From the NCBI GenBank assembly GCA_965368975.1, contig CBDUPA010000012.1, forward strand, positions 64,001 through 128,000: 64,000 nucleotides of DNA, given 5' to 3'. Each line of letters begins with the position of its first letter. Position 1 is the first letter of the stretch. A program made the position numbers and the translations under genes. The notes under the pieces were generated by a model that saw only the letters and a program-made list of their open reading frames with translations, did not search any database and was not told where the DNA came from. Of the stretch, positions 25,660 through 62,900 are shown piece after piece. The DNA is from an uncultured bacterium (GTDB lineage: Bacteria > Acidobacteriota > Thermoanaerobaculia > Multivoradales > JAHZIX01).

Positions 25660-25980
25660 GTCTCCCTCCTCTCGATGCTGCCGACTTAGTTGAGACCAGG
25701 ACCTGCCAAGGAAATAAATATCAGTCTTTCTTTAATCTTATAGCAAGACGGATCTCTGTCGAAGTCCCCCGGCCAGACGTCGGCTCTCCAGGGGGCATTT
25801 GCATGTGGTCGCATCTACTAGATCCGAGCCCACACTGCGGTGCCGGGGGCTGCGCCCTCCGGCCCGGTCCCTCGGCGGATCGAGCGTCGCCCCCAGCGAA
25901 CTGTGTGGACCACATCCCAGACCGTCTCCGCTACAATCCCCTCGACCCTTCGCCACTTTTCGCAACCGGGGGATTGCTGC

Positions 25981-28845
25981 ATGCCCGAGCCGCTGTCTGT
26001 TTTTATTTCCTACTCACAAAAAGACGAGGCCTACCGTGAGGCTTTCGTCACGCACTGCGCCACGTTGCAGCAGCAAGGCTGGATCGATGCCTGGCACGAT
26101 GGCCTGATCCCAACTGGTGAGGAATGGGAAGATGCGATTCTGGGCAAGCTGCGGAGCGCTCAGTTCGTGATGTGCCTGGTGTCGGCGAACTCGCTGGCGT
26201 CGGAGTACTGCTGCAAAGAGCGCGACGATGCGTTGGCGCGCGGTAAGCAATGCCTGGTGATTCCAGTGATTCTGGACGACTGTGACTGGCAGGCTTCACC
26301 GTTCGGTCGGCTGCAAGCCTTGCCCAAGCAGGCGGCGATTGTGCCGGTGGCACTGTGGGAGAACCAGAATAGCGGTTGGAACAGCGTCATCCAGAGTCTG
26401 CGGCAGCTGATCAGGGAATGGTTTCCCACTCGAGCGAAACAGGCGGCCTGGCCGAAGCCCAAGGGGCAGGTTGACGTCAACATCCACCGCCTCCCCACTC
26501 CCGGCCCGACCTTCGTCGGCCGCACGGACGAACTCGCCCGCCTCGACGCTGCCTGGACGAATCCGGACGTCCGCATCTTCAGCGTCGTGGCCGCGGGTGG
26601 CTTCGGCAAGTCGGCGCTGGTGCACCGGTGGACGCAGCAGTTGCAGGCGGACGGCTGGCGGGGCGCGGAGCGGGTGTTTGCGTGGTCGTTCTACTCTCAG
26701 GGGACGGCGGAAGCCCCGCAAGCTGGAGAAAGAGGGTCTCGACGCACGGCGGCGTCGGGGGAGCCGTTCTTGATCGAGGCGTTGGAGTGGTTCGGATGGG
26801 AGGGAGGGATACCCGCTTCAGCGAACAAGAAGGGCGAAGTCCTCGCCGACCTCGTGGCATCGACACGCACGCTCCTGATCCTGGACGGCCTGGAACCACT
26901 GCAACAGAGCAGCGAACTCCCCGGCGAGGCGGGCCACCGACTGCTCGACCCGGGGATCAAGGCGTTCTTGCGCCAGCTGGCGACGAGTAACGCCGAGGGA
27001 TTGTGCGTGCTGACGACACGGCTGCAAGTTGCCGACCTGGCGTCGCGGGAGGCTTCGACGGCGCCGGTGCTGCGGTTGGAGAAGTTGGAGAAGGCGACGG
27101 GCGCGGCGTTGTTGGAGGCGGTGGGGGTGACGGGGCCTCGGAAGGAGCTGGAGCGGGTGAGCAAGGAGTTCGAGGGGCATGCGTTGACGTTGCAGCTCTT
27201 TGGGACCTACCTGGTGAGGTACCACGGCGGCGGCATCAAGCACCGGACGGAGGTGCCGTCGCTTGTGACCAAGAAGGGGTTCCAGAATCCGGTAGAACGG
27301 GTGTTCAAGGCGTACGTCGAGCAGATGACGCCGGAGCAGTTGCGGGTGTTGTTGCTGCTCGGGCTGTTCGACCGTCCCGCCGAGCCGGAGGCGGTGGAGG
27401 CGGTACGGGCGGAGCCGGCGATTGCGGGGCTGACGGAGGGGATCAGCGCGGCGGACGAGGAGGCGTGGGTGGATGCGGTTGTCGAGCTGGAAGACTTGGG
27501 GTTGTTGCGGCGGGAGGGAGGAGCCTTGGACGCTCACCCTCTGGTGCGCGAGAGCTTCGGCGCGCGGTTGCAGACGGAGCACGCGGAGGCGTGGCGACAG
27601 GGCAATCGGCGGCTGTACGAGTATTACCAGGCGTCGACGGACGAGTTCCCGGAGACGCTGGAGCAGATGCTGCCGCTGTACACGGCGGTGGTGCATGGGT
27701 GTCGGGCGGGGTTGGAGCAGGAGGCGCTGCACGAGGTGTTGTTCAAGCGCATCAAGCGGGCTAGCGAATTCTACAGCACCAAGAAGCTCGGCGCCTTCGG
27801 CTCGGAGCTGACGGCGTTAGCGGCGCTGTTCGAGCGGCCCTGGGACCGTCCCGCCGTCGCGCTGACGGCAGCGGCCCAGGCGTGGCTGCTCAACCAGGCC
27901 GCCTTCGTGCTGCGCGCCCTGGGGCGGCTGTCGGAGGCGGTGGCGCCGATGGAGGCGGCGCTGGAGCTCGGCATCAAGCAGGAGAACTGGAAAGCAGCCG
28001 CGACCCGTGCCAGCAACCTCAGCGAGCTGACGCTGACGCTGGGGCGGGTGGCGGATGCGGTCGAGTTCGGGGCGCGCGGCGTCGAGTTGGCGGATCGGAG
28101 TGGGGATGAGTTCCAACGCATGGGTAACCGCACCACCCAGGCCGACGCGCTGCACCAGGCCGGCGTAATCGAGGCCGAATCAGGCGACGCCAGCGCGGCG
28201 CGCTTCGCCGAGGCCGAAGCGCTGCAGGCGGAGCGGCAGCCGCAGTACCCGAAGCTGTACTCGGTTCAGGGCTACCAGTACTGCGACCTGCTGCTGACGC
28301 AGTGCGCGCGGGCTGTGGACGTCTCGGCCGTGGACCTCTCGGCGGGGGAGCGGGCGGAGAAGCTCGACGCGGTGCGGCAGCGGGCGGAGACGACGTTGGC
28401 GTGGTTGACCCAGGCAGGGAAAGACGTCCTATCTGTCGCCCTGGACCACCTGACGCTCGGCCGGGTCCACCTGGCCCTGGAGCAGGTGAGCGAAGCGGCC
28501 CTGGCGCTGGAGCGGGCGGTGGCGGGGCTGCGGCAGGCTGGACACGAGTGGTTTTTACCCGCTGGCCTGTTGGCCCGCGCCGCGCTGCACCGCCACACCG
28601 GCGACGGCACGTCCGCCCGCCGTGACCTCGACGAAGCGCTGGAGATCGCCGAGCGGGGATCGATGCGGCTGCACGAGGCGGATGCGCACCTGGAGTGGGC
28701 GCGGTTGTTGTTGTCGGAGGGGAAGGTCGAGGAGGCGCGGGGGCACGTGGCGGTGGCGCGGCGGATTGTGGACGAGACGGGGTATGGGCGGCGTCAGCCT
28801 GAGATTGCGGAATTAGAGGAAAGGTTGGCGGTAGGTTCTGGGTAG
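25981..28845 (+). CDS. TIR - STAND P-loop NTPase - TPR protein (NLR-like)
   Basis: VFISYSQKD..WHD..SEYCCKE (TIR); FVGRTDEL, AAGGFGKS (Walker A), LLILDGLE (Walker B), LTTR, GHALTL, HPLVRE; C-terminal TPR-like helices. Confidence 0.88.
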   Translation: MPEPLSVFISYSQKDEAYREAFVTHCATLQQQGWIDAWHDGLIPTGEEWEDAILGKLRSAQFVMCLVSANSLASEYCCKERDDALARGKQCLVIPVILDDCDWQASPFGRLQALPKQAAIVPVALWENQNSGWNSVIQSLRQLIREWFPTRAKQAAWPKPKGQVDVNIHRLPTPGPTFVGRTDELARLDAAWTNPDVRIFSVVAAGGFGKSALVHRWTQQLQADGWRGAERVFAWSFYSQGTAEAPQAGERGSRRTAASGEPFLIEALEWFGWEGGIPASANKKGEVLADLVASTRTLLILDGLEPLQQSSELPGEAGHRLLDPGIKAFLRQLATSNAEGLCVLTTRLQVADLASREASTAPVLRLEKLEKATGAALLEAVGVTGPRKELERVSKEFEGHALTLQLFGTYLVRYHGGGIKHRTEVPSLVTKKGFQNPVERVFKAYVEQMTPEQLRVLLLLGLFDRPAEPEAVEAVRAEPAIAGLTEGISAADEEAWVDAVVELEDLGLLRREGGALDAHPLVRESFGARLQTEHAEAWRQGNRRLYEYYQASTDEFPETLEQMLPLYTAVVHGCRAGLEQEALHEVLFKRIKRASEFYSTKKLGAFGSELTALAALFERPWDRPAVALTAAAQAWLLNQAAFVLRALGRLSEAVAPMEAALELGIKQENWKAAATRASNLSELTLTLGRVADAVEFGARGVELADRSGDEFQRMGNRTTQADALHQAGVIEAESGDASAARFAEAEALQAERQPQYPKLYSVQGYQYCDLLLTQCARAVDVSAVDLSAGERAEKLDAVRQRAETTLAWLTQAGKDVLSVALDHLTLGRVHLALEQVSEAALALERAVAGLRQAGHEWFLPAGLLARAALHRHTGDGTSARRDLDEALEIAERGSMRLHEADAHLEWARLLLSEGKVEEARGHVAVARRIVDETGYGRRQPEIAELEERLAVGSG

Positions 28846-40109: not shown

Positions 40110-41420
40110 TCAGAGCCGCCAGTAGAGGTGGTAGACGGGGAAGGGACGGCCGCCGGCTCGCTCGGCGCGCAGGACCTCGTGCAGCACCAGGCGGAGGTCC
40201 TGCAGCGTGAGATGTCCGCCAGAGGCTTGATTGCCGAACAGGCGTAGGGCGAGGGCGGCTTGGGGGCTGCACGTGAGATGGTCGGCGAGGGCGGCGATAC
40301 GACGTGCCAGGTCGAGGTCGACAGCTTGCTCGCCTTGGTGCCCCGCCCTGGCATCGGCCTTGCGGCTCAGCTTGCGGCCGGTCTTGCGAGCGGGTGCCAG
40401 TCGCAGCTGCAAGCCGTGGCTGAGAACGAGGACCGCTTCCAGCGCTCGACGGACCTGGACGAATTCGTCAGCCAGGTCGATCCAGGGGCGCGGGTCGGTG
40501 GCGTCGTCGACGTCGAGATCCCGGCCAGCGAAAGGGGAGCGCACGCCCAGGTCGTCGCCGTGCAGCAGGCACAGCCAGCGCAGGTGCGGCGGTGACGTGT
40601 CGAAGCCGGCGGTGTCGGCGGCACGCAGGCCTTCTTCGATCACTTCGCGGGCCCGCTCCCGGTGGCCGTGGTAGAGCAAGGCTCGTGCGGCCGCGGCGTG
40701 GGCGCTGTCGTCGACCAGGGACGGGGCGCTCAGGGCTTCCAGGTCACGCAGTAGGTTCCGCCGGCGCAGGCGATCTTGCCGCAGGTCGAGCATCATGCGT
40801 CCGAACAGTGCGCTGTGCCGCAGCGGGAAGGGGTCGGGCAGGCTGGCGGCAGGGTCGGAGTCTTCGGCTCTCCCCGTAAGCGCTATGGGTAGCCGGAAGG
40901 CCAGGTCGACGGCGGTCTCGACGTGGTCACGGGCGGCCGGCAGGTAGCCTTGCCAGCTGTTGTAACTGGCCAGGGCCCAGTGGATCAGCGTGCGGGTCGC
41001 GGGGTGCAGGGGCTGCTGGTCGGTGCTCAGGTCGAGCGCTTGGTGCAGTCGTCGATAGCCTTGGAGATGGTAGCCGGTGTAGCTGAGGAAGCGGCCCAAC
41101 TGGGCCAGTGCCAGCGCGTGCAGTTCGCGCGCGTCGCCGGCGAAGTGACGCGTCTGCCGCAGCTGCGCCGTGATCTCGACGGCAAGCCGGGTCAGCTGCG
41201 ACGCCGCGGCGGGGCTCTCGCGCACCACGGCCTCGGCGGCGGTGAACAGCATCGCGACGCTGCCGCTGGTGTGGTAACGGCTGTCCTTGCGTACGATGTC
41301 CACGCGCCGCTGGGGCGTCTCGCGCAGCAACCGGGCGAGCAGCGGCCGCACCTCGGCGATTTCGGGGCGTTGTAGGAGTTCTTGCAGGCTGGGTTCTTTG
41401 GATCTGCTGTCCTGAGGCAT
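40110..41420 (-). CDS. Divergent TPR-like helical protein, paralog of 43164-44441
   Basis: SQLTRLAVEI..ELHALALAQLG aligns with GRLARLALML..ELRALAWANLA; the C-terminal ALALRLFGNQA..LTLQDL aligns with ALAALELFREAA..LSIEML. Confidence 0.65.
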   Translation of the reverse strand: MPQDSRSKEPSLQELLQRPEIAEVRPLLARLLRETPQRRVDIVRKDSRYHTSGSVAMLFTAAEAVVRESPAAASQLTRLAVEITAQLRQTRHFAGDARELHALALAQLGRFLSYTGYHLQGYRRLHQALDLSTDQQPLHPATRTLIHWALASYNSWQGYLPAARDHVETAVDLAFRLPIALTGRAEDSDPAASLPDPFPLRHSALFGRMMLDLRQDRLRRRNLLRDLEALSAPSLVDDSAHAAAARALLYHGHRERAREVIEEGLRAADTAGFDTSPPHLRWLCLLHGDDLGVRSPFAGRDLDVDDATDPRPWIDLADEFVQVRRALEAVLVLSHGLQLRLAPARKTGRKLSRKADARAGHQGEQAVDLDLARRIAALADHLTCSPQAALALRLFGNQASGGHLTLQDLRLVLHEVLRAERAGGRPFPVYHLYWRL

Positions 41421-41620: not shown

Positions 41621-42169
41621 CTACAGGGCTTCCGGCAGCGCGAGGCTGCGATCGACCCCCTCGAGACCAGCGGCCAGGTCGAGATCGAGACCGGTGACGC
41701 CGCGGCGCACAGCTGGGCTCGCCACCTCGACGCGGAGGCTCGGGCCGTCGATGCTCAGCCGCGGTGGGTGACGCAGCTTGCGAGCCACCGCGGCGATGGC
41801 GTTGGCGAAGGCGCAGGCGGCGGTGAAGTCCGGGAAGCGGTACTGCTTCTGCAACCCGCGTTCGCCTTCCTGCCAGCCCGGCAGGCGCTGTAGTTCGAGC
41901 GCCAGCTGCGCCGTCTCGACTTCGCCGACCTTGGTGTGCCCGGTACGGCTGGCTGTGGACAGTCGGCTGCAGCCACCGGTGGCGTCGACGGTGGTGCTGT
42001 CGGCTTGCCGCTCCGCATCGCTACCGATGCGTTCTGCTTTGAGCTTGTCGACGCTGCCGAGGCTTTCGATAGGGGGGCCTACACGCGCGGAGTCTGCGCT
42101 CGGGGAGCCCGCGCCGCGGCGAGTGTCGGTCGAGCGAGGGGAGCGTTGTCGTGCATGGGTTTTACTCAT
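41621..42169 (-). CDS. Pterin-4a-carbinolamine dehydratase-like protein with disordered N-terminus
   Basis: LPGW..LQKQYRFPDF..AFANAIA..RHPP..GVTGLDLDLA; the canonical HHP is altered to RHPP; AAGGA RBS then ATG 42169. Confidence 0.75.
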   Translation of the reverse strand: MSKTHARQRSPRSTDTRRGAGSPSADSARVGPPIESLGSVDKLKAERIGSDAERQADSTTVDATGGCSRLSTASRTGHTKVGEVETAQLALELQRLPGWQEGERGLQKQYRFPDFTAACAFANAIAAVARKLRHPPRLSIDGPSLRVEVASPAVRRGVTGLDLDLAAGLEGVDRSLALPEAL

Positions 42170-42791
42170 GGTCGTGTCATCCTTGATGAAGTGGGTTCGA
42201 GGTGAGTTTCGGCGGTAGCGCGCATGAATTCCTGCTGCAATCTCCTTGGATTCGCGCTCATTGCAATGAAATTCATGCGCGATCTGGGGGCAGCTTAGGG
42301 ATGCGATGCTGGCTTTGTCAAGTCTTAGGCAACGCAAAGGCATAGATTTTTATGCGGCTGATGCCGATCTGGACTGGAGGAAGCGTGTTCAGGCGAGTTC
42401 CGAAGGGCACGGCGAATCGCACCTCGGCAAGGAGGTGGGGAGGGAGCGGTCTGGGTACTGCAGAGTTGCCTCAGATCAAAGGGAATATTTCTTCTGCAAG
42501 ATCAAATGTTCGCAGGAAGGGGGGGTGGCCCTGGGTTGTCGCCGCTGTGCGAGAGGCGTAGGATGGCCGTTTCGAGAAGCTGAGGAAGGGCGTAAGTAGT
42601 GCTAGAGGAACGAGTTGCGGGAGGAGGTCTACCGTCTCGGTGGCTGCTGGAGCAGCCCGCAAGAACGCCTGCGATAGTCTCTCTGGAGGCGACGGCTTGC
42701 TGAATGGGGCAAGTCGGCCTGAGTGTCTATATACATCTCAGTGGTATCCGTCATGAGGGCGGTGCCAAACATGGTGAAAAGGAGATGCGAA

Positions 42792-42890
42792 ATGCTGAAG
42801 TATGGTGAGGCGAAGAAGGCTGTCTACAGAGGATCGCTTATCGACCCGATCGGGTTTGATAGAGGGTCATTGATCGATCCCATCGGATAG
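42792..42890 (+). CDS. 32-aa peptide with duplicated RGSLIDPIG motif (MLKYGEAKKAVYRGSLIDPIGFDRGSLIDPIG)
   Basis: AAAGGAG RBS 7 nt upstream of the ATG; the two repeats are identical in amino acids but 6 of 9 codons differ synonymously. Confidence 0.8.
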   Translation: MLKYGEAKKAVYRGSLIDPIGFDRGSLIDPIG

Positions 42891-42953
42891 CCCCGCTGTC
42901 TCGGTCCTTCCGAGTCTAAACTGCTGAATCCCCCCCATCGTACTTCCCCATAT

Positions 42954-42978
42954 GGCCCCGGGTGGCAGGCCCGGGGCC
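42954..42978 (+). terminator. GC-rich hairpin after the peptide gene
   Basis: GGCCCCGGG-N7-CCCGGGGCC perfect 9-bp stem; no clear U-tract. Confidence 0.45.
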
Positions 42979-42983
42979 TCGAC

Positions 42984-43012
42984 TTGCGTCAGTTACCGAC
43001 CTCGACTACACT
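42984..43012 (+). promoter_or_regulatory. Sigma70-like promoter for the TPR gene
   Basis: TTGCGT-N17-TACACT. Confidence 0.45.
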
Positions 43013-43163
43013 TTCGTCGATCCAGTAATATCTTTCCCGCAACCGGCTTGAATTCTGTCTTTCATGGATCACCGAATACTGGAAACGCCCGTGCGCTGTG
43101 ATCCGCAGGGCGACTGTTGACGCATTGGCACCATGCTACAGTGACCTAGGAGGACGAGACACC

Positions 43164-44441
43164 ATGACGGCATCCCATCCGGAACCGCTGCCGCTGACCT
43201 TGATTGCCGAGTATCTTGACGGATCCGCCGACGCCAACTCATTCTGGGACGATTGGGTGTCGGTTCTGCTGGAGAACCCGCGGTTCGCGGCCAGTTTCCA
43301 CCGCCTCTTGGGGCTGAGCGAAGAGTTCAGCTTGCCGCAGCTGAGCCGGGTCGCCTACGAGGGCCCGGAGGCACGCGAGCTATTGCAGCGTCTGCGCTGC
43401 TTGCCGCCAGCGAGGCAGTGGCGCGAGGCACGCAATGCCAGTTGGGTGGTCAATTGGTGTTTGGTGCGCCTCTTGCTGCGAGAGAATCTCCGCATCACTC
43501 CGCAGGACGTGCACGAGGGCGGCCGCCTGGCGCGTTTGGCCCTGATGCTGGTGCGACGCTTGCCGGCTGCAGTCTACGGCACTGAGCGCTTGGCCGAACT
43601 GAGGGCACTGGCCTGGGCCAATCTGGCCAATGTCTATCGCGTGCGCGGTGATCTCAAGCAGGCCGACGCTCTCATGCAGCGTGCACTGCGTCGCCTCGGA
43701 GGAGAGCCGCTGCAAGAGCCCGGTCTGCGAGCGGATCTGCACCTGATTCAGGGTTCCATGCTCTACGATCAGCGGCAACTCGGTGCCGCCCGGATGGCCT
43801 TCGAGCAAGGCTTGAATCTCTGTCAGCACCCGCTTCGGCAAGAAACGGCCGCTATGCTTCAGATGCGGCTGGCCGCTCTGGACTACGAGGTGGCACACCT
43901 AGACAGTGCAATTGAGAGGACCGAGGCGGCCCTACGACTCATCGGCAAGTCTGGGGCTACGCGGCTCTTTGTGCAAGCGAGCTTCAATCTTGCGGATCTG
44001 TTTGCCCGAGCGGGCCGCTTCGACGAGGCGATGGCGCAGCTGTCTCAGCATCGGCAAGCCCTGCAAGTCTATGGGACGCCGAGTGATCAGTGCCGCGCCA
44101 ACTGGTGCGAGGGGATCATCCACCAGGGGCTTGGCGAATTTGGCGCGGCAGTGAAATGCTACGCGCGCGCAAAAAAAGCTTTCCTTTCTCTGGATTTGTG
44201 GTACGATGCAGCCATTGTCACGCTGGAGTTGGCTAGCTTACTGCTCGAACACGGCAAAACAGCTGAAGTCAAGCAACTAGCGCTCGACACGCACAAGCTC
44301 TTTGAAATCCAGGACGTCGACCGCGAAGCTCTTGCAGCGCTAGAGCTCTTCCGCGAGGCAGCGACGCAGGAAGCCTTGTCGATCGAGATGCTGCAACGCA
44401 TCGAAGCCGACTTCCGGCAAGCCTGCCGTGTCTCCGCTTAG
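43164..44441 (+). CDS. TPR-repeat protein
   Basis: AGGAGG RBS then ATG 43164; repeated TPR-like helices (ANLANVYRVRGDLKQAD, NLADLFARAGRFDEAM, GIIHQGLGEFGAAVKCY). Confidence 0.85.
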   Translation: MTASHPEPLPLTLIAEYLDGSADANSFWDDWVSVLLENPRFAASFHRLLGLSEEFSLPQLSRVAYEGPEARELLQRLRCLPPARQWREARNASWVVNWCLVRLLLRENLRITPQDVHEGGRLARLALMLVRRLPAAVYGTERLAELRALAWANLANVYRVRGDLKQADALMQRALRRLGGEPLQEPGLRADLHLIQGSMLYDQRQLGAARMAFEQGLNLCQHPLRQETAAMLQMRLAALDYEVAHLDSAIERTEAALRLIGKSGATRLFVQASFNLADLFARAGRFDEAMAQLSQHRQALQVYGTPSDQCRANWCEGIIHQGLGEFGAAVKCYARAKKAFLSLDLWYDAAIVTLELASLLLEHGKTAEVKQLALDTHKLFEIQDVDREALAALELFREAATQEALSIEMLQRIEADFRQACRVSA

Positions 44442-54237: not shown

Positions 54238-57003
54238 ATGGGGGACGGCTACCCCCGAGAGGCGGACTGCTGGCAGAGAGGGCCCCGCATCGCCCTCCTA
54301 CGACTGGCGTTGCAACCCTGGCAGCGTCTGCAGGCTCTGCGCGCCGACGCGACCGTCGGGCACCTGGCCGTGGCCCGCCAGGCACAGGCCGAGCTCGACG
54401 CCCTCGTGCCGACGCTCGAGGCCGCACTGTTCACCGCCGCCGGTCCCAAGCGTCCCGCCGCCGGTCCCGTGGAGGCAGCGCGACGCCTGGCGTGCGTCGC
54501 GCTACGGCGGGCGGTGCACAATGGTCGGGAGTTGGACGCCTCGACACTCGGGAGCAGTGACCGCGACGGTGATCTGCAAGGGCAGCTGCAGCGATATAGC
54601 GAGCTGAAGGCTACTGTCGAGCGTGCCCGTGCCGCGGCGTTGCAGGCCTGCCAGGCCGAGTTGCCGCGGGCACGTCAGCACGTTCTCGACGCCAGCGCTG
54701 AACCGCTCCAGGCGGCGGCGCTAGCACTGGTCAGCCGATCGCTGTTCCGCCGGCTGCAGCGTCTGCAGGCCGCAGCCGCACCCCATACTCAGGCCCGCGA
54801 CGCCCAGACCCACGATACGCGTCACACCGTCGCCAAACTGCTCGCCTACCTCGACCGTGCCGCCAGCAAGACCAGCCCCAACGGCCTTTTCTGCGCCACC
54901 GCCGTCGCAACCTGGGGCGAGCGCCTGAACGTCCACCGCCTCGCTACGCCGCCGCGTGTCGATCTGCGCCTCAACGTCACCGAAGCGCGCAAACTCACCG
55001 CCCACCTCGGCTTCGGCCCGCAGATGGATGCCCTCGTGCGACCCCGTGTCACCACGACGCTGCATCGCCAATCCGCGGAGTCCGGCGAAGTCCTGACCTT
55101 CTGGCGCACAGCCTCGCTGCGTCGACCTGAGGACGACGAAGCTCTCCAGCGCCTGGGCGCACAGCCGATCGTCGACCTCTTCGTGCAACTGGCGGATGGT
55201 CGTCGCTCCGTTCCCGAACTCCTCCTGGCCGTCGCCAGCGCGGCGGCAGAGCACGGCATGGAAGTCAGCGTCGAGCAATTGGAGCCCTTCTTCCGCCAGC
55301 TCGTCGACGCCGGCCTGCTGCACGCCGAGATCGAGCTGCCGTACGGCTGCGGCCGCCCCCTGCGCGCGTTTGCGCATCGAGTTGAGGAACCGGCTGTCGA
55401 CGGGGCCCCAAGGATTGCCGAGCTCGAAGCCATCGAAGCCGACCTCGACGCCGTCAACGCCACGCCCATCGAGGCCGCCGCTGCCGTCCGTCTGCCCGCC
55501 ATCCTCGACGACCTGGCACGGCGTCTCGACGCCCAGGCAGCCACCCTGCCCGAACTGGCCCGGCCGCTCGTGCGCGATGAACTCTTCCGTCTCGACGCGG
55601 CCCTCGACGCGGCACCCGGTCGGCAAACCACCCTGCCGTGTCCCTGGCGCGACGCCCTGCAGCCCACCGTCGACGGCTACGCGCGCCTGTTCGCCTCGAT
55701 GTACCCGTCGTCAAACTATCGTCAGCGCCTGGCGTCCGCCTTCCTGGAGCACTGGCCCGCGGACACCGACATCCCCCTGCTCGACCTCTACCATCACTTC
55801 CAACCACCACCCCCGGATTCCCGCGTACTCGACTTCCCGTGCCCGAGCAGCGATGTCGATAGCCAGCCGTACCAAGCCTGGCAGCAAGCCCGCGCCCTGC
55901 TCGTCGAGCTGGCCAGACAGGCCAGGGCGGCCGGGGAGCACGAAGTCCGTCTCGACGACACCGCCTGGCATGCCTTGACGCATCCGCTTTCCGACCCAAC
56001 CGGTCCTTCTGAGACGCTGAAGTGGACCGCCGGCGTTCTCTTCCAGCCCGTGCTCGCCAGTTCCGCGAACCGAAAGCAGCAGAACCGGCTCGTCCTCAAC
56101 GCCCTCTTCTCGGGCACCGGCGTTGCCTTCGCCCGCTTTGCCGACCTGCACCCCGAAGTCGAGCCTGAGCTGCGCCGGCAACTCCGTGCCTCGGACTCTG
56201 CCGAAACCGCCCAAGTCCCCATCGTCGCCGAGCTGACCTACAACCACTGGGGCCGCACCGCCAACGCCGGCCTGCGTCCACGACTCCACGAGTGGGAACT
56301 CGAACTCCCCGGTGACCGCGCCTCCGATGCTGGCTACGCCGCTGGCAAGGTCCTCACCCTCGCCGACCTCACCCTGCGCTACGACTCCACCGAGCAGCGC
56401 TTCCACCTGCGTCGCATCCAAGACGGTCGCCAGGTCCTCCCCGTTCTGTCGAGCGGCGTCAGCCCCGAAGGCCTGGTGGCGCTGCTGGTGGCGATCGGGC
56501 GTCAAGAGCAGCAGCCCCTTGGTCTGCTCCCCGGCTTCGCCTGGCCGGAAGAAGAGCTGGAACAAGACTTCCCAGACGGCGTTGAGACCTGGCCCCGCTT
56601 CGTCCGAGCTGTTTCTTCGGAGGCAGGCACTGACGAGATCGACCTCGAAATCGTCCTCTGGCGCCGCCGCTGGCGCTTCCCCCGCGCCACCATTCCCAAA
56701 CCCCCAAAGTCCCGCCCCGGCGACGACGCTGACCTCCACCTCGCTACCTACTTCGCAGCCGTCGACACCTGGCGCCACCACCACCTCCTTCCTCGCCACA
56801 TCTACCTCCACACCGCCACCGTCCGCAAGCCCACCCACGTCGATCTCGAATCCCCCCTCCACGTCGAGCTGCTGCGTCGACGCCTGGCGTCAGAGAAGGG
56901 AGATGTCTACGTCACCGAAGCGCTGCCGGGGCCAGAGGGTCTGTGGTGGGGCGGTGGAGACGAGCGCTCGAACGTCGAGGTGCTGGTGCAGTTGGGGGTG
57001 TGA
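54238..57003 (+). CDS. LanB-type glutamylation domain (split dehydratase)
   Basis: RRAVHNGR, YLDRAASKTSPNGLF, RTANAG.RP, LADLTLRYD, WPRF..IVLWRRRW, LPRHIY..KPTHVDLES, VTEALPG. Confidence 0.88.
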   Translation: MGDGYPREADCWQRGPRIALLRLALQPWQRLQALRADATVGHLAVARQAQAELDALVPTLEAALFTAAGPKRPAAGPVEAARRLACVALRRAVHNGRELDASTLGSSDRDGDLQGQLQRYSELKATVERARAAALQACQAELPRARQHVLDASAEPLQAAALALVSRSLFRRLQRLQAAAAPHTQARDAQTHDTRHTVAKLLAYLDRAASKTSPNGLFCATAVATWGERLNVHRLATPPRVDLRLNVTEARKLTAHLGFGPQMDALVRPRVTTTLHRQSAESGEVLTFWRTASLRRPEDDEALQRLGAQPIVDLFVQLADGRRSVPELLLAVASAAAEHGMEVSVEQLEPFFRQLVDAGLLHAEIELPYGCGRPLRAFAHRVEEPAVDGAPRIAELEAIEADLDAVNATPIEAAAAVRLPAILDDLARRLDAQAATLPELARPLVRDELFRLDAALDAAPGRQTTLPCPWRDALQPTVDGYARLFASMYPSSNYRQRLASAFLEHWPADTDIPLLDLYHHFQPPPPDSRVLDFPCPSSDVDSQPYQAWQQARALLVELARQARAAGEHEVRLDDTAWHALTHPLSDPTGPSETLKWTAGVLFQPVLASSANRKQQNRLVLNALFSGTGVAFARFADLHPEVEPELRRQLRASDSAETAQVPIVAELTYNHWGRTANAGLRPRLHEWELELPGDRASDAGYAAGKVLTLADLTLRYDSTEQRFHLRRIQDGRQVLPVLSSGVSPEGLVALLVAIGRQEQQPLGLLPGFAWPEEELEQDFPDGVETWPRFVRAVSSEAGTDEIDLEIVLWRRRWRFPRATIPKPPKSRPGDDADLHLATYFAAVDTWRHHHLLPRHIYLHTATVRKPTHVDLESPLHVELLRRRLASEKGDVYVTEALPGPEGLWWGGGDERSNVEVLVQLGV

Positions 57004-57177: not shown

Positions 57178-59901
57178 GTGGTCGTATGTCTCTTGGAGAC
57201 AGTCGTTCGAAGAGCAGTGACAGCTGCTGCGATTCTGACGCTTGTCGTGGGACTGGGCTTACAGGCACAGTCAGGGTCTGCTAACGCCCCGAAAGGGGCC
57301 CAGTTTGTCTTCGTGATCGATGATTCTGGCAGCATGGGGCAGCCGGAACACGGGCTTACAGACCCCGATCGGCTGGCTGTGTTCGCGGTGCGTGCTCTAC
57401 TGGGTGTGCTCGACGACCGGGACTGGGCGACAGTTGTTCGTCTCAATGGCCCTCGCGAGGGTGAAGATCCGCTATCGCTGGCGCCTTTGGGAGATGCGCA
57501 CCGAACCCGGCTGATGGAGGTTCTGCAGCTGGACGCGGAACTGGCGCGATATGAGGGGGAGTACACGCCTTGCCGAAGGGCTCTACAGGCCGTCAAGCGG
57601 ATGCTCGAAGGGTCGGATAGGCAGAACATTTCCCAAGTCGTGATCTTCCTTTCGGATGGCAAGTGCACACCGGTAACGCAAGGGGAAGATCGTGTCCTTG
57701 ACTTTGCTGAAGGTTTGCGCTCGGCTCAGGGAGAGAATCCGCGCCTTCAGTTCTACTTTCTGCGATTCGAAGGGCAAGAGTACACTCCGGGGCTGGAGCA
57801 GCTGGCCGAGAACACCGGAGGTTCGGCGATCGAGGTCCGACAGGGGGATCCGACGCGGATCCTCTACACCTTTGCGCAAGCGCTGGCCCGCTCGCAGGGC
57901 TACGAACCTCTGATCCTCAGTCCGAGCGTGCGGCAGCTGCCGGCCTACCGGGGGGCCAACCGAGTCCGCTTGCTGGCAATTGCGCGCGGCGATCAGGGAG
58001 AGCCGTTGGCGGTGCGCGTCCGGCGTCGTCAAGGGGGCGGAGTCGATACGGTGCCGATCGAGCAGGGCACCCACAGATTCCCGGGGCAACAGGGGTATCG
58101 CTTCGCTTCGGTGCAGTATCGGCCGGTCGAGCAGCCGGTGGAGGTGGAGGTGGTCGGAGCCGGCGAGGATTGGGAGGTCGTTGCCTTGCCGGAATATCAC
58201 CTGGCGGTCAACCTGGCCTTGCGTCGTGGTGGCTGTGAGGAGGAAGGCGAGACCCTGGGTGGCGTCACGCCAGCCGGAAGCGGATTGTGTGCGGTGATCG
58301 AGCTAGTCAATGAGGAAGGGCGCGTGGTGGGCAAGGAGGTGACCACCGGGCAGTTACAGGCTTCCTTGCGTCAGACAGTCCCGGGTGGTTCCGAGCCTCG
58401 GCTGATTTCGGCAACGGAAGCTTCCTCGGATCTCGCCAGCTTCCGCTTGGATATACAAGGGCTCGAGAGCGGTCACCACGAGTTTCAGGGGCAGGTCCAG
58501 TTGGGGACCCAGGTTGACGATCCCCGAGTTCTGACGGGCACTGCGCGAACACTGCAAGCAGTAGATCTGGCGATCCGGCCGGTTCCGAGTGAGCTGCGAC
58601 TCGATCCAATCCAGCCCGGTGAGGTCAGCCGTCAGAGCCTGGAGATCCATGGCAACTTCGCGCCGTCGGAAGCCGTGGTCTCCTTGGAAGAGGGAGAGAA
58701 TCTGCCGAGCTGCGTGACCTTAAGCTTTGACGGCAAGGAGCTTGGAGAGACCATCTCGATTCGTCCAAAGCAGGGCTACTGGGTCGAATTTCGGGCGGCC
58801 AAAGCCTGCGGCGAGACGCAAGGTCGACAGGTCGATGCGCGCCTGCGCCTGGAGCTTGCGGGACTCGATTCGATTGCCATACCGGTAACCTTTCGCTTGG
58901 AGAACAACGCCCAACGCCGAGATCCGACAACAGTGGAATTGCGGGCAGGTACGACGAGAGAGGTCGATGTAGCAATCCCCGCGGCCTGGAATTCTTTCGA
59001 CGTACAAGCAACCGCCGCCGAGAATGCGCAGGGCGAAACCTATGAGTTGCTGCGCGCTGAGATTCTGAGCGAGCCTCCGATTCCCTCTGAAGACGGTGAA
59101 GCCTCAGGTCGCCAGCGAGTCGAGGGATTGACCGCTGAACAGGGACTGTCTCTGCAACTCGTAGCTTCGGGCTGTTGCAGGTCCGGGACCTACGCCCTCG
59201 ATGTCTACCTGTGGCCCAAGGTCGGTGCCACGACCATCGTACCGCTGGTCGTCGAAGTCGAGGCCAGCTGGTGGACCTGCTACGGCTCTTGGGTGCTCGC
59301 GGGGACCATCGGTCTCTTGGCTGGCTTGCTGGTGTTCTATGTCCTGAGCATGTTCAGTCATACCACCTTGCTCGACCGAGACCAGCTGAGCGCTCGTCTA
59401 GTGCCCTTACGCTGGCCTCGCCATCGCGGCGCACCGCAACCCGCCAGCAATCGCAGTAGTGACCGAGAAGAGGTCGAAGACATTGTGCACAGTGAAGTCT
59501 CTAGCCTGCAGCGGGTGCGGAGCTGGCTACGAGCCAATCCCCTGGTCTTTGGCTCGCCTGGGCGAGAGTACAGAGAGACGGCCGAACTCTTTTTGACCAC
59601 TGATCTCGGGCTAACCTCGATTTCCCTGGTATTGGAGCGGGATGTCGTCGACCGACTCCGGACGAGCGAGGAGATCGACACTTGGGAAGAGGGGAGGCTC
59701 TTCGCGCGCGCCGGCAATCCCGTCTCCTTCTTTGTCGTGCGCGGTCCGAGCAAGAAAGTTCAGCAGATGACTCCGGAAGGCTGGTTCGGCAAGGTCGATG
59801 ACCTGACTGTCGAGCAGGTTTCCAAAGGACAAAGATTCATTCGTCAGCTTTCCATCAAAGAGCGCAAAGAAGGCGCTGTGGCCGGGTGGGTTCTGGAATA
59901 G
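57178..59901 (+). CDS. vWA-domain membrane protein
   Basis: Signal peptide; FVIDDSGSM (MIDAS DxSxS), YTP, VIFLSDG; TM helix near aa 700 followed by a cytoplasmic tail. Confidence 0.85.
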   Translation: MVVCLLETVVRRAVTAAAILTLVVGLGLQAQSGSANAPKGAQFVFVIDDSGSMGQPEHGLTDPDRLAVFAVRALLGVLDDRDWATVVRLNGPREGEDPLSLAPLGDAHRTRLMEVLQLDAELARYEGEYTPCRRALQAVKRMLEGSDRQNISQVVIFLSDGKCTPVTQGEDRVLDFAEGLRSAQGENPRLQFYFLRFEGQEYTPGLEQLAENTGGSAIEVRQGDPTRILYTFAQALARSQGYEPLILSPSVRQLPAYRGANRVRLLAIARGDQGEPLAVRVRRRQGGGVDTVPIEQGTHRFPGQQGYRFASVQYRPVEQPVEVEVVGAGEDWEVVALPEYHLAVNLALRRGGCEEEGETLGGVTPAGSGLCAVIELVNEEGRVVGKEVTTGQLQASLRQTVPGGSEPRLISATEASSDLASFRLDIQGLESGHHEFQGQVQLGTQVDDPRVLTGTARTLQAVDLAIRPVPSELRLDPIQPGEVSRQSLEIHGNFAPSEAVVSLEEGENLPSCVTLSFDGKELGETISIRPKQGYWVEFRAAKACGETQGRQVDARLRLELAGLDSIAIPVTFRLENNAQRRDPTTVELRAGTTREVDVAIPAAWNSFDVQATAAENAQGETYELLRAEILSEPPIPSEDGEASGRQRVEGLTAEQGLSLQLVASGCCRSGTYALDVYLWPKVGATTIVPLVVEVEASWWTCYGSWVLAGTIGLLAGLLVFYVLSMFSHTTLLDRDQLSARLVPLRWPRHRGAPQPASNRSSDREEVEDIVHSEVSSLQRVRSWLRANPLVFGSPGREYRETAELFLTTDLGLTSISLVLERDVVDRLRTSEEIDTWEEGRLFARAGNPVSFFVVRGPSKKVQQMTPEGWFGKVDDLTVEQVSKGQRFIRQLSIKERKEGAVAGWVLE

Positions 59902-59947
59902 AGCTCGAGGCCGGTCCGAAAACAAAAGCAAAATTGCGAGGTTGAAC

Positions 59948-62900
59948 ATGGCCAGAGATCGTAAGTTGATCGTCGAAGAACTCCTGACCAAGCCCAGCGG
60001 CGTGTGTCCGATGCTGTTCGTTGGTATGGGAGGAGCGGGTTGCAGGATGGTGGAGCGGATCGCCGGTCATCTCCGAGGTCGACCGGATTATAAAGAACGC
60101 TTCAAAGATCTGGTCAAGTTCGCCATGATCGACAGCAATGTCAATGATCTGGAAGGGTATCGAGAAGTGGCCAATGCAACCTTCCTGATCAGTGACTTCG
60201 AGAAGGAGGAGTACGCCAATCTGGCCTCTGGCAAGAAGTTCCTGGAACCGCAGCAGTACTTTACACAGTGGGTGCCGTCGGACTATCGCTTCCGCTCCGG
60301 AGATACCTCGGGGGCTGGCCAGATTCGCATCGAATCTCGTCTGGGTGTTTACTACCAGATGAAGCACAAACAATTCGTGCCCAGATTCCGCAGTCTCTTG
60401 GAGAGTCTGAAGTCGCACGAGAACGGACATCGGAGGTTGGACTCCGACGAGATCCGGATCGTACTCTGCTATTCCGTCGCCGGCGGAACCGGCTCCGGTT
60501 GTCATCTGCCAGTGGCCTATATGTTGCGGGATCAGGCCGACGACCTGGGCAAGCCGACTTTGATCGGTGTTGCGGTGTTGCCGGCGGTCTTCGAGGACAA
60601 GGTCGGCGTCAATAAGGATGGTGTTTTTGCCAACGGTTATGCAGCTCTGAAGGAAACCGAGCATTTGATGAAGCTCGGTGCCCCGGATTCTCGGTTCTTT
60701 CCCGAGAAGGGGATCGAGTTTCACTACAACCCCGCCGATGAATCGAAGCGAACGGTTCACGCGCGTCCCTTCGACTTCCTTTATCTGATCGACAAACCCG
60801 AGTCGTTCAGCGTTCCCGAGCCGGTGGATGCTGCGGCGGACGGACTCTATCTGCAGTTCTTCTCGCCCCTCTACGGGGCCCAGCTCTCCGACTACGACAA
60901 CTACACGCAGTACCAGAGGTTCTTGGTACCGGAAGACTTCGAAGAGGGAGGCATTCCGGGCTTCTCGACCTTCTATGGCTCCTACGGTTGCGCAGTGCTC
61001 CTGGTGCCGGTTCCCGGCCTGGTGGAGTATTGCAGCCAGGCTGCCGCCCTGGCGTTGATTCGGGCCAGCTTCATGGGGGATATCCCAGCGGATCCGATGT
61101 ACGAGCCCTTGCGCATCGACAGCGACCGCTTCTATGAAGTCAAGGAGCGCGACGACGAGGATGCGCAGCTCTTCCAGGCTGCGGATATCCCCAGTCAGCC
61201 TCAGAAAGAGCGTCGCCGAAGGTTGTTCGATCGGCTTTTTGCCAAGCGGGTGCGCCTGCTGGCGGCGTGTGAGTACCGGGCTGACCGCGACGGCCGGTTC
61301 CGCGGCATCTTCCGGCACGGCCACTATCTCGGAACCATCCCGAAGCTCGACGGTAGCGCCGTCATGGACATGGAGCGGTTCGACGAAGAGGCCGAGCGCG
61401 AGCGCGAGCTGGTCGGTGGCAAGCTCAGCGTTTCGATCGGCGGCATCATCCTGCCCGCCTTGGTCGGACTGCCGGGGGACGACCCCGGACTCCTGCAACG
61501 GGCGCACCAAGCGATCAAGAACTTCAAGGTCGACAAGCCGCGTCGTGACATGCGGGTCAACGAACTACGAGCGCGCGGCGACGCGTGGCGGACGATGTTG
61601 AGGGATGAGGGGCGTCAACGCCTGCGCGATGGCTACAGCGATGGCACGGTGCAGGTGCCTGGCATGGAGAGCCTGGTGCAAATGGACTTCCTGCGCCGGG
61701 AGGCGGGAGAGGTCGAGCTGGCGGCCAAGCGCTACGCGGTGCTCTCTCTGCTCGACGCGGTGGATTGGGAACAAGCGCCGGAAGACGAGGCCGAGTCCAA
61801 CTTCGATGTCCAGGAGAAGAAGCCCACGGCCAAGGCCGACGATGCCTTGATCGAGCACGTAATCAACCAGGCTCGGGATCTGGCCTTCCGCGACATCCGC
61901 CGCGAGTTCCTGTCCCAATTGGGCGAGTTGCGCGAGGCGCTGGAGAGCATCGCCGACGAGATGCGGGAGCTGGAGCAGGGGTCGACCAACCTGGAGCGCG
62001 AGTACGGTCGTCGCCTGGAGCGCCTGCAGTTCCAGGGCGAGGAGTCGGCCAATCAGTACATCCTGGACGCCGAGGCGTTGCAAGGGGAAGACAATCGACG
62101 CTTCTGGGACTTCTACTTCGAGGACAAAATCGCAGCTCTGCCCGAGTTGTCGCTGAGCAATGCTCGCGTGCAACAAATCCTGAGTGACACCGTCATCGAG
62201 CTATCGCAGCGTACGGGCCGCAGCACGAGCACGTCACGCCTGGAGAAACTGTTCACCGCGTTGCGCAAGTATGCCCAGGACTTCCTCGACAAGCGGATCG
62301 GCGGTGATCGTCACTCACCGGACCTGGAACGTCGCGAAGGGTTGACGCTGTCGGATGCGCTGGAGCTGGAGATCACCTACCGAGCGCTCTATCGCAGCTA
62401 CGCCGAAGCGATCCAGGGGCAGGGGGACAAGGTCATTCGTCGCATTCTCTCCGAATACCGCGCCCTGCCCGACGAGAAGCAGATCGATTTCGCGGAGCCC
62501 AAGCACCAGGACTATCTGCGCGACAAGATCAAGCGGGTAGTGCAGGAGAAGGCATCCCTGCTCTGTGTCTACAACCACTCACGCGATCAGCATGGTGGCG
62601 TGCGGCCAAACCATATCTTCCTGGCCGCGATTGATGAGAACTTCAAGAACAGCAACATCGAACAGGCGCTGAAAGATGCCGACATCGATGATCTCAAGTG
62701 GGTGTCCGGCAGCTGGCACAACGCCAAAGAGATCGTCTTCTACCGCGCGGTGTTGAATGTTCCGCTTTACACCTTCGGTCGGCTCGACCAGATGAAGCAC
62801 CACTATGAAAGCTTCCGCAGTCTGAGGCGGCGCTCGAAGGTGCTGCACATCGACAAGAACTGGGAGGGTGACCAGCTCTGTGACCTGGATCCGGGCACGC

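Follow-up and report, generated by a model that had tools for sequence, protein, structure and literature searches.

What is the function of a 32-residue peptide that carries the same nine residues twice and is encoded just upstream of a tetratricopeptide repeat (TPR) protein? The question is raised by positions 42792 to 44441 of a stretch of 64,000 nucleotides (nt), the whole of which we call the window, from the genome of an uncultured acidobacterium of the class Thermoanaerobaculia (assembly GCA_965368975.1, contig CBDUPA010000012.1; the host genome has 7.13 Mb and 65.4% GC). A first-pass annotation, made from the letters of the window, had proposed a peptide-receptor system resembling the RRNPP systems of the Bacillota, and had named an antitoxin-like peptide and a multi-core ribosomally synthesised and post-translationally modified peptide (RiPP) as further options. 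Here we describe a family of small precursors that lie beside genes of one TPR family, and to which the peptide belongs. The explanation that we favour on comparative grounds, and to which we would give an even chance, is that the cassette encodes a peptide ligand and its cytoplasmic TPR receptor, RRNPP-like in logic and not a detectable homologue.

The peptide gene and its two cores

The features of the locus are as follows.

42780..42784, + strand: Shine–Dalgarno-like AGGAG, 7 nt 5′ of the peptide ATG
42792..42890 (stop included), + strand: peptide gene; no hydrophobic segment and hence no signal peptide
42828..42854, + strand: core copy 1, RGSLIDPIG, with the family motif G-x-x-[IML]-D-P-x-G
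42861..42887, + strand: core copy 2, RGSLIDPIG, abutting the stop codon; 7 bases unlike copy 1, all synonymous
42954..42978, + strand: 10-bp GC-rich hairpin without a T-run, between the peptide gene and the TPR gene
43148..43154, + strand: ribosome-binding site of the TPR gene, AGGAGGA
43164..44441, + strand: putative receptor of 425 amino acids (aa), a cytoplasmic TPR protein (Pfam and family alignment)

The open reading frame (ORF) of 32 codons runs from the ATG at 42792 to a TAG at 42888-42890 and its product is MLKYGEAKKAVYRGSLIDPIGFDRGSLIDPIG. The first-pass annotation had picked out this hidden repeat ORF, its good ribosome-binding site and a second copy that ends right at the stop, and all of these are as described. 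The strongest sign that the ORF is coding comes from the comparison of the two cores. These differ at seven bases in six of the nine codons, i.e. at six third positions and at the first position of one leucine codon (CTT/TTG), and every difference is synonymous. When seven random substitutions were simulated on core 1, only 21 of 1,000,000 trials were wholly synonymous, which bears out the earlier suggestion of selection on the peptide. Since there is about one synonymous change per synonymous site and not a single residue change, the duplication would be old and the peptide sequence held. Judging from its codons, the 32-codon ORF is a real, translated gene under purifying selection.

The repeat is visible in translation only. 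The 27-nt cores match at 20 of 27 bases, a weak repeat at the level of DNA, and the direct repeat was reported neither by a DNA repeat search, which returned just a 17-nt imperfect inverted pair (I2) for the core stretch, nor by Tandem Repeats Finder. The longest open frame for the peptide has 55 codons and starts at a GTG at 42723; the N-terminal extension does not resemble a signal peptide and is not preceded by an AG-rich site. The hydropathy of the peptide itself peaks at 0.61 in a 12-residue window so that, by this heuristic, it lacks the export signal of RRNPP propeptides. No Pfam or NCBIfam model matches the peptide, LIDPIG has no second occurrence in the six-frame translation of the 7.13-Mb genome, and Rfam has no family within 42000-43400 at E <= 1.

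On the 5′ side lies a minus-strand frame of 240 codons (41621-42343) with a pterin-4a-carbinolamine dehydratase domain (4e-16) that spans only residues 143-228. The true start of this frame is probably much later, and the non-coding stretch ahead of the peptide gene would then be longer.

The spacer and the TPR protein

The peptide ORF ends 273 nt before the start of the TPR gene. The hairpin after the ORF, also noted at first pass, is present as a 10-bp GC stem. The terminator scan did not list it and the whole 116-nt stretch that contains it does not fold unusually (z = -1.42); it might serve as a terminator or an attenuator. A promoter claimed for the same region was not recovered, as there is no sigma-70-type match on the + strand between 42300 and 44700.

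The TPR protein predicted downstream of the hairpin is confirmed, with matches to four Pfam families (TPR_MalT at 8e-12, just above the cut-off, TPR_2, TPR_7 and TPR_12) and repeats from about residue 144 to a C-terminal DREALAAL motif. The protein retains all the invariant columns of its family alignment. It has no N-terminal hydrophobic segment and, in Pfam, no helix-turn-helix (HTH), so the XRE-HTH output of RRNPP receptors is missing here. The first 60 or so residues align to a region that resembles the zinc finger zf-HC2 in the rest of the family, with the Cys residues gone; as the first 90 or so residues hold no Cys at all, the zinc motif H-x3-C-x2-C is absent. The earlier label "TPR-only" does not hold for the family, whose zinc-finger region this copy has lost. 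Among 5.8 billion proteins the best non-self relative has 33% identity, and a single-protein scan of genome and metagenome collections gave no locus orthologous to the window pair. No extracytoplasmic function (ECF) sigma gene lies beside the TPR gene; its neighbours are the pterin dehydratase-like ORF and an ORF that, from its translation, we take to be HPPK-like.

Precursors and TPR genes are found together

The first-pass annotation had suggested a search for small ORFs ending in G-x-x-[IL]-D-P-x-G near homologous TPR genes. We ran this check and the outcome was positive in the host genome and in its relatives. We define a DP-x-G precursor as a small ORF that adjoins a gene of the TPR family and has, no more than about 12 residues from its stop, at least one core G-x-x-[IML]-D-P-x-G. 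The window ORF fits this definition with two cores, the last at the stop, and a TPR gene 273 nt downstream.

In the host genome there are 13 paralog loci of the TPR protein by tblastn, and at least 17 matches by a genome search. The genome yields 151 six-frame hits to the motif within 20 residues of a stop, and 14 of these fall in the 1.5-kb upstream same-strand windows of nine of the 13 paralogs, where 0.2-0.4 were expected. A tenth locus has an upstream motif ORF with a longer tail, and an eleventh, on contig C23, has four copies of RSAMIDPNG encoded downstream on the opposite strand. Among relatives, inspection of the best locus of each revealed a motif ORF in 16 of 19. The following counts by position come from 80 named Thermoanaerobaculia loci and are descriptive, not tests, as related genomes are not independent of each other; 'signal peptide' here and below means a hydrophobicity heuristic, not SignalP.

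Motif ORF upstream, same strand: 48 of 78 loci, 39 with a heuristic signal peptide
Motif ORF upstream, opposite strand: 2 of 78 loci, 1 with a heuristic signal peptide
Motif ORF downstream, same strand: 7 of 76 loci, 3 with a heuristic signal peptide
Motif ORF downstream, opposite strand: 3 of 76 loci, 3 with a heuristic signal peptide

The precursor family

After loci fetched repeatedly had been de-duplicated by sequence, and taking the first Met of the open frame as the start, we obtained 86 distinct paired precursors with a median length of 99 aa (range 27-151). One core is found in 37 of these, two in 34, three in eight, four in six and five in one. The core consensus is x-G-x-x-[I 47%, M 27%, L 16%]-D-P-[N 54%, D 24%]-G, with G at position -3 in 92%. 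Ser, Thr and Cys are common at core positions -2 and -1, and the invariant residues are D, P and G. The Gly of the last core is the final residue of 34 of the 86 precursors, and a further two residues follow it in 29.

The canonical order is a signal peptide, a Trp-rich amphipathic stretch (W..L..LW) and then the cores, joined by variable linkers rich in Gly, Ser, Thr and Pro. A hydrophobic segment of signal-peptide strength is present in 33 of 34 aligned precursors. Hence the earlier remark that there is no Sec signal is true of the window peptide and atypical of the family, most members of which have one. Leaderless precursors of 27-44 aa recur in other genomes with the Trp-rich stretch kept; the window peptide is without it. 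By its motif and its genomic setting, the window peptide belongs to a family of small precursors not described before, of which it is a derived form without a leader. Neither Pfam nor NCBIfam has a model for these precursors, and the ESM Atlas returned only unnamed Acidobacteriota clusters of the 'hypothetical protein' kind. A profile built from the 34 precursors finds, among 1.84 billion sequences, 3869 representatives at E <= 1e-3 and 642 at E <= 1e-10, nearly all of 83-167 aa, and a cluster look-up gave no informative names.

The closest paralogs of the window TPR protein are at C1:309663 and on contig C44 of the same genome. The peptide beside the C1 paralog (MSEQ...RGAWMDPVG..., 50 aa, with a GGAGGA site) has one intact core, and a second DP-x-G-like stretch after it is out of frame. 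Some 580 nt upstream of the C44 paralog there is a double-HTH XRE gene, and the C1 paralog has a similar XRE gene (L021:832-1536) 2.4 kb upstream. The C44 paralog itself (L023:4025-5341, + strand) has one in-frame TAA and no recognisable precursor upstream.

Upstream of the precursors, words resembling ribosome-binding sites are enriched and no family-wide promoter motif was found. In seven loci (L004, L057, L059, L061, L066, L072 and L088) and related ones, GAGCAACCTTTCTC is followed by GGCTCCGCCGGCATGCC about 75 nt upstream of the precursor. This pair could be a promoter or an operator; it occurs in one orthologous group only and may reflect shared ancestry.

Two further kinds of repeat-bearing protein deserve a mention. 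On contig C23 of the host genome, an 80-aa precursor (L027:5617-5859, - strand) has a signal peptide and four perfect tandem copies of RSAMIDPNG without linkers, with 12 silent and no replacement codon differences, and is located downstream of and convergent with its TPR gene. Elsewhere, three long secreted proteins, P0033 (731 aa), P0037 (669 aa) and P0133 (783 aa), carry more than 30 consecutive G-x-x-[IML]-D-P-[ND]-G units in mid-protein, each followed by K or R, with unrelated N- and C-terminal domains on either side. The N-terminal domain has three weak matches in 301 genomes of the phylum, none of them in this class. These proteins could be polyprotein precursors or could carry a structural repeat.

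Selection on the cores across the family

The pattern seen in the window peptide extends to the family. In the 49 multi-copy precursors, the codon pairs compared between cores of the same precursor are identical in 461 cases, synonymous in 292 and residue-changing in 201, i.e. 59% of the differing core codons are silent. Individual precursors can be more extreme, e.g. 35 synonymous and no residue changes for four copies of GGAGMDPDG, 36 silent and eight replacement changes for five copies of the AGADMDPNG type, and 12 and none for the RSAMIDPNG copies of the host. Within an orthologous group the cores are conserved most and the linkers least.

The cores of different cassettes are not alike. 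At the variable core positions, two cores of one precursor have an identity of 0.69, as against 0.35 for cores of different precursors, and the paralogous cassettes of the host genome all differ in their core: RGSLIDPIG, RGAWMDPVG, three copies of RGAALDPNG, four of RSAMIDPNG, as well as RGSVIDPNG, RGVTVDPNG, KGVYIDPIG, VGSYLDPNG and others. Sameness within and difference between is what specific recognition would predict; recent duplication contributes too.

The putative receptor family and its presumed output modules

In the sample searched, the TPR family is confined to a narrow part of the tree. Matches were found in 34 of 41 related genomes, with at least 43 in the top genome, these copy numbers being lower bounds. 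The family profile (E <= 1e-30), run on 201 sampled genomes of the phylum, matched eight, all of the same class, and the 80 loci gathered with the family alignment come almost throughout from Thermoanaerobaculia or Acidobacteriota. No relative was found on viral contigs. Of longer fused forms just two were found at E <= 1e-30, both apparently tandem fusions.

The N-terminus of the receptor family reads H..E.L....GEL......HL..CP.CR, and relatives carry H-x3/4-C-x2-C. Zinc-binding anti-sigma domains follow an H-x3-C-x2-C rule. The Pfam model zf-HC2 scores 20.0 bits on the protein of locus L007 (E = 7e-4), below its cut-off of 22.2. This suggests that the family N-terminus has the look of a zinc-binding anti-sigma domain. 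A second receptor clade, which includes P0015 and P0017-P0019, has an XRE HTH (PF01381/PF13560) in place of the zinc finger; one family of the order has an expanded set of its genes, many of them arrayed in tandem. In total, 170 distinct receptor genes comprise 118 with a zinc finger (H..C..C), 28 with an HTH and 24 with neither, this last class being noisy and containing some misclassified zinc-finger proteins. An N-terminal hydrophobic segment is found in none of 46 receptors, and the most hydrophobic stretch is a conserved TPR helix, YDAALV.LDLA. The HTH-bearing receptors must be cytoplasmic.

The type of peptide follows the type of receptor:

Zinc-finger receptors: 118 genes, 71 paired precursors, upstream on the same strand in 61; Cys-flanked in 2 of 70 distinct
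HTH receptors: 28 genes, 13 paired precursors, all on the opposite strand (6 divergent, 7 convergent); Cys-flanked in 7 of 7 distinct

Beside HTH receptors the core reads G-C-x-[IL]-D-P-x-G-x-C, and one precursor often lies between two tandem receptors. Short leaderless precursors are commoner beside receptors without a zinc finger, at five of nine paired against four of 71, the class without either module being the noisy one. The window pair and the C1 paralog belong to this zinc-finger-less, short-leaderless group.

Sigma factors appear in a minority of loci. In the outgroup order (L144-L147) and at L040, L058 and L063, the TPR gene is directly preceded by a full ECF sigma gene, and the C2 locus of the host genome (L024) has precursor, sigma and TPR genes in this order, with the last two overlapping by 8 nt. 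We surveyed 2-kb flanks at the 80 loci and found sigma genes to be uncommon neighbours, at four of 109 upstream and six of 127 downstream ORFs. The 25 Pfam families that are most frequent in these 236 neighbour ORFs include no maturase, protease or transporter.

Some relatives have an ORF of about 90 aa between the precursor and the TPR gene (e.g. L007:940-1173, L036:1687-1959, L042:1666-1959, L054:1603-1899, L077:1427-1753, L016:798-1250 and others) that is homologous to region 2 of sigma-70 only. The L007 fragment matches Pfam Sigma70_r2 at 3.5e-6, and the remaining ORFs were found by jackhmmer only. To judge by this similarity, the ORF looks like a truncated 'mini-sigma'.

Another observation concerns the far side of the window peptide. 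The minus-strand gene at 40110-41420 encodes a 436-aa helical protein without a Pfam family, which hhalign places as a remote member in the same TPR regulator family (probability 93%, E 3.4e-7 across 351 columns). Given this kinship, the peptide gene has a member of the TPR family on either side, the two being divergently oriented. Upstream of 40110-41420 we saw no DP-x-G ORF.

A ligand and its receptor?

In the explanation that we favour, the core peptide would be the cognate ligand of the adjacent cytoplasmic TPR protein and, once seated in the TPR domain, would switch the N-terminal output module. For most members this module would be the anti-sigma-like zinc finger, releasing or capturing an ECF sigma factor, and for one clade the XRE helix-turn-helix, binding DNA directly; in the window copy it would be a cysteine-less remnant. 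Canonical precursors would be exported by Sec, cut into cores and returned to the cytoplasm for sensing, following RRNPP logic. Import is conceivable since the host genome has five OppA-type binding-protein genes. In a diderm variant of this scheme, the peptide would stay in the periplasm and report periplasmic proteolysis to its producer. The window peptide, which has no export signal, would act within the producing cell or leave by another route. What the sequences show is that the cores are coding and under selection, that precursor and TPR genes are paired, which domains the receptors carry, and that no conserved enzyme is encoded nearby. We infer that the peptide binds, how it is processed and re-imported, which sigma factor is the partner, and in which direction regulation runs.

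The selection on the cores, the pairing, the signal peptides of most precursors beside receptors that have none, the sigma genes at some loci and the lack of conserved enzymes or transporters nearby all speak for this explanation. So do three further observations. Different output modules, zf-HC2-like, XRE HTH or none, have been swapped on one TPR domain; peptide type, Cys-flanked or not, tracks receptor type; and the conservation of cores within precursors and their divergence between cassettes, next to a receptor of sensor type, is the pattern expected of specific recognition. More broadly, we tentatively propose, at rather less than even confidence, that Thermoanaerobaculia run a network of private peptide channels, with up to dozens of cassettes per genome, in which secreted or leaderless multi-copy peptides are read by cytoplasmic TPR receptors with an anti-sigma zinc-finger or XRE-HTH output. 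Such a network would mean that a diderm has converged on RRNPP-like signalling, and would include the first peptide-gated soluble anti-sigma factors, the window holding a stripped-down intracellular version.

A number of points count against this explanation. Pairing proves co-inheritance and not contact, and a regulator with its target gene gives the same pattern; as related genomes are not independent, the counts overstate the support. No precursor was found for 77 of the 170 receptor genes, some of which have short flanks. In nine loci from other orders of the class, the sigma and TPR genes occur together without a convincing motif ORF, which suggests that the precursor gene was gained within one order. 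The window copy is itself without signal peptide, zinc finger or orthologue (best 33%). Re-import of a secreted peptide across two membranes is an assumption of our model. The paired cysteines of the HTH clade suggest an oxidised extracellular loop, a poor fit to a cytoplasmic receptor, and the >30-fold DPNG arrays of the three long secreted proteins could be a structural or ion-binding repeat. Finally, similarity to solved RRNPP receptors is of a generic TPR kind. In a profile search against PDB sequences the Rap proteins scored 2e-6 (RapH), 1e-5 (RapF) and 1e-4 (Rap105) over about 100-130 residues, and were ranked below designed TPRs, Pins/LGN and kinesin light chains. Matches this weak, and behind other TPRs, do not allow us to claim membership of the RRNPP family. 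The first-pass idea of an RRNPP-like system in a diderm survives in part: the small motif ORFs beside TPR genes, the XRE-HTH clade and the diderm gene content (LolA in the window, and the phylum Acidobacteriota) agree with it.

Alternative explanations

The alternative that survives best, though we consider it unlikely, is that the TPR protein controls the transcription of the small gene, and that the secreted product acts outside the cell without ever touching the TPR protein; it might, for instance, be antimicrobial, help adhesion, bind ions or signal to a different receptor. Adjacency and co-inheritance fit this equally well, and the precursors are exported according to the signal-peptide heuristic. 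The Cys-flanked loops of the HTH clade and the long DPNG arrays of secreted proteins also point to a role outside the cell. Moreover, HTH receptors are always encoded on the strand opposite to the precursor and in many cases share a divergent control region with it, as would be expected of a local regulator. What this account does not explain is why each of up to dozens of near-identical products should need its own sensor-type regulator, or what the TPR domain senses. The copies are held alike within a precursor and unlike between cassettes (0.69 versus 0.35), as expected for specific recognition, and the leaderless window peptide and other short forms cannot act outside without some other means of export.

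It is improbable that the window ORF is a relic, decaying from a canonical cassette and either non-functional or untranslated. The window pair does lack the signal peptide and the zinc finger that most members have, it has no known orthologue, and its peptide gene has a low GC content at third codon positions (0.64 versus 0.72 for the TPR gene). In its own group of three paralogs, the C44 member has its in-frame TAA and the C1 peptide its single intact core. A decaying gene is, however, hard to reconcile with cores that are saturated with synonymous changes and identical in residues, with a strong ribosome-binding site, and with a receptor that retains every invariant family column. Leaderless forms of 27-44 aa also recur elsewhere, and the window pair is in the company in which they are commoner (5/9 versus 4/71).

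A multi-core RiPP, slightly less probable again, would have its cores excised and modified by enzymes encoded elsewhere, e.g. the LanB-like protein at 54238-57003, with the TPR protein as a regulator or as a recognition or scaffold protein. The multi-core layout, with conserved cores and variable linkers, the frequency of Ser, Thr and Cys at core positions -2 and -1, and the presence of a Lant_dehydr_N protein about 10 kb away are what one might look for in such a system. Against this, no maturase family recurs among the 236 neighbour ORFs in the 2-kb flanks, where no neighbour thus backs the RiPP option of the first-pass annotation, and the cassettes are scattered over many places in each genome. 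Canonical precursors bear a Sec signal peptide instead of a RiPP leader, and the invariant residues D, P and G are not modifiable ones.

An addiction or defence module in which an antitoxin-like peptide neutralises the TPR protein is very improbable: two adjoining genes, one of them very small, and a TIR-TPR protein with a ThsB-like TIR elsewhere in the window would be in keeping with it, but nothing supports the antitoxin-like peptide suggested earlier, there is no toxin-like domain, PADLOC matched neither the TPR protein of the window nor the product of 40110-41420 nor L010, a zinc-finger member, and gave only a weak HTH match (E 1.6e-4) for the HTH form P0015, canonical partners are secreted, and viral contigs hold no relative.

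Comparison with known systems

The RRNPP(A) systems of Bacillota comprise Rap-Phr, NprR-NprX, PlcR-PapR, PrgX, Rgg-SHP, ComR-XIP, AimR-AimP and TprA-PhrA. As in these, a small propeptide gene adjoins the gene of a cytoplasmic TPR-type protein; most propeptides carry an export signal, and their conserved, active-looking part is C-terminal. In one receptor clade the XRE-HTH and TPR architecture is shared too. Short leaderless propeptides also exist in RRNPP systems (SHP, ComS). Tandem pheromone copies within one propeptide are described for Rap-Phr systems (PMC11343458). The cassettes differ from RRNPP(A) in belonging to a diderm phylum, in having the peptide gene upstream of the receptor gene, in that most receptors have an anti-sigma-like zinc finger and not an HTH, and in a core motif, G-x-x-[IML]-D-P-[ND]-G, that is common to the whole family. 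As far as the accounts available to us go, peptide quorum sensing of the RRNPP type is placed in Bacillota (PMC10075063, PMC9765709) and treated as a trait of these bacteria and their phages, and that of Gram-negative bacteria is described as small-molecule based (PMC10075063).

Zinc-binding anti-sigma (ZAS) factors of the zf-HC2 type offer a second comparison. The N-terminal H..C..C region aligns to zf-HC2 (below the cut-off), and an ECF sigma gene directly precedes the receptor gene in the outgroup and at some loci of this order. Where those factors have a membrane anchor and a periplasmic sensor, the receptors are soluble and carry a TPR domain of about 300 residues; most cassettes lack an adjoining sigma gene (10 sigma ORFs among 236 neighbours) and the window copy has lost the cysteines. 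In the portions of the ECF classification at hand, soluble anti-sigmas are given for 10 groups, TPRs are named in two settings only, as an extension of the sigma factor (ECF42) and on an anti-sigma that resembles FecR (ECF267), and the architecture described here does not appear (PMC7826278).

The best Pfam match of the window protein (8e-12) is to the MalT-type TPR sensors (PF17874, STAND), which likewise combine a ligand-sensing TPR superhelix with an output module. Our protein is much shorter, has no NTPase domain, and its proposed ligand is a gene-encoded peptide. The precursors resemble multi-core RiPPs and the multi-copy pheromone or neuropeptide precursors of eukaryotes in their near-identical short cores and variable linkers, and the three long proteins carry >30 units each followed by K or R; they differ in that no conserved maturase lies near the cassettes.

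A search of the literature, excluding supplementary files, found no paper on this peptide-TPR system, and the cassette, as seen by comparative genomics, looks to be undescribed. If our explanation is correct, the same signalling logic arose independently in a widespread, hard-to-culture phylum of soil and sediment, where peptide signalling would be coupled to sigma-factor control over dozens of parallel channels per genome. It would also provide a handle on regulation in Thermoanaerobaculia and, presumably, a set of orthogonal peptide-receptor pairs. Even if the TPR protein only regulates its neighbour, there would remain a large family of small secreted proteins, so far unannotated and comprising 642 clusters at E <= 1e-10, and a new soluble anti-sigma-like architecture.

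Other genes in the window

Three further plus-strand regions of the window may be of use to others. The gene at 25840-28845 encodes a 1001-aa protein with an N-terminal TIR domain (TIR_2 1e-16; PADLOC ThsB-like 2e-31) and TPR repeats, a candidate for a role in defence or signalling. The LanB-like gene at 54238-57003 (Lant_dehydr_N 1.4e-46), which is about 10 kb from the cassette, is adjoined by 57178-59901; this region may be a RiPP cluster, and no link to the peptide was found. The gene at 59942-63817 encodes a 1291-aa protein with a tubulin-like N-terminal domain (Tubulin_2, 8.8e-41).

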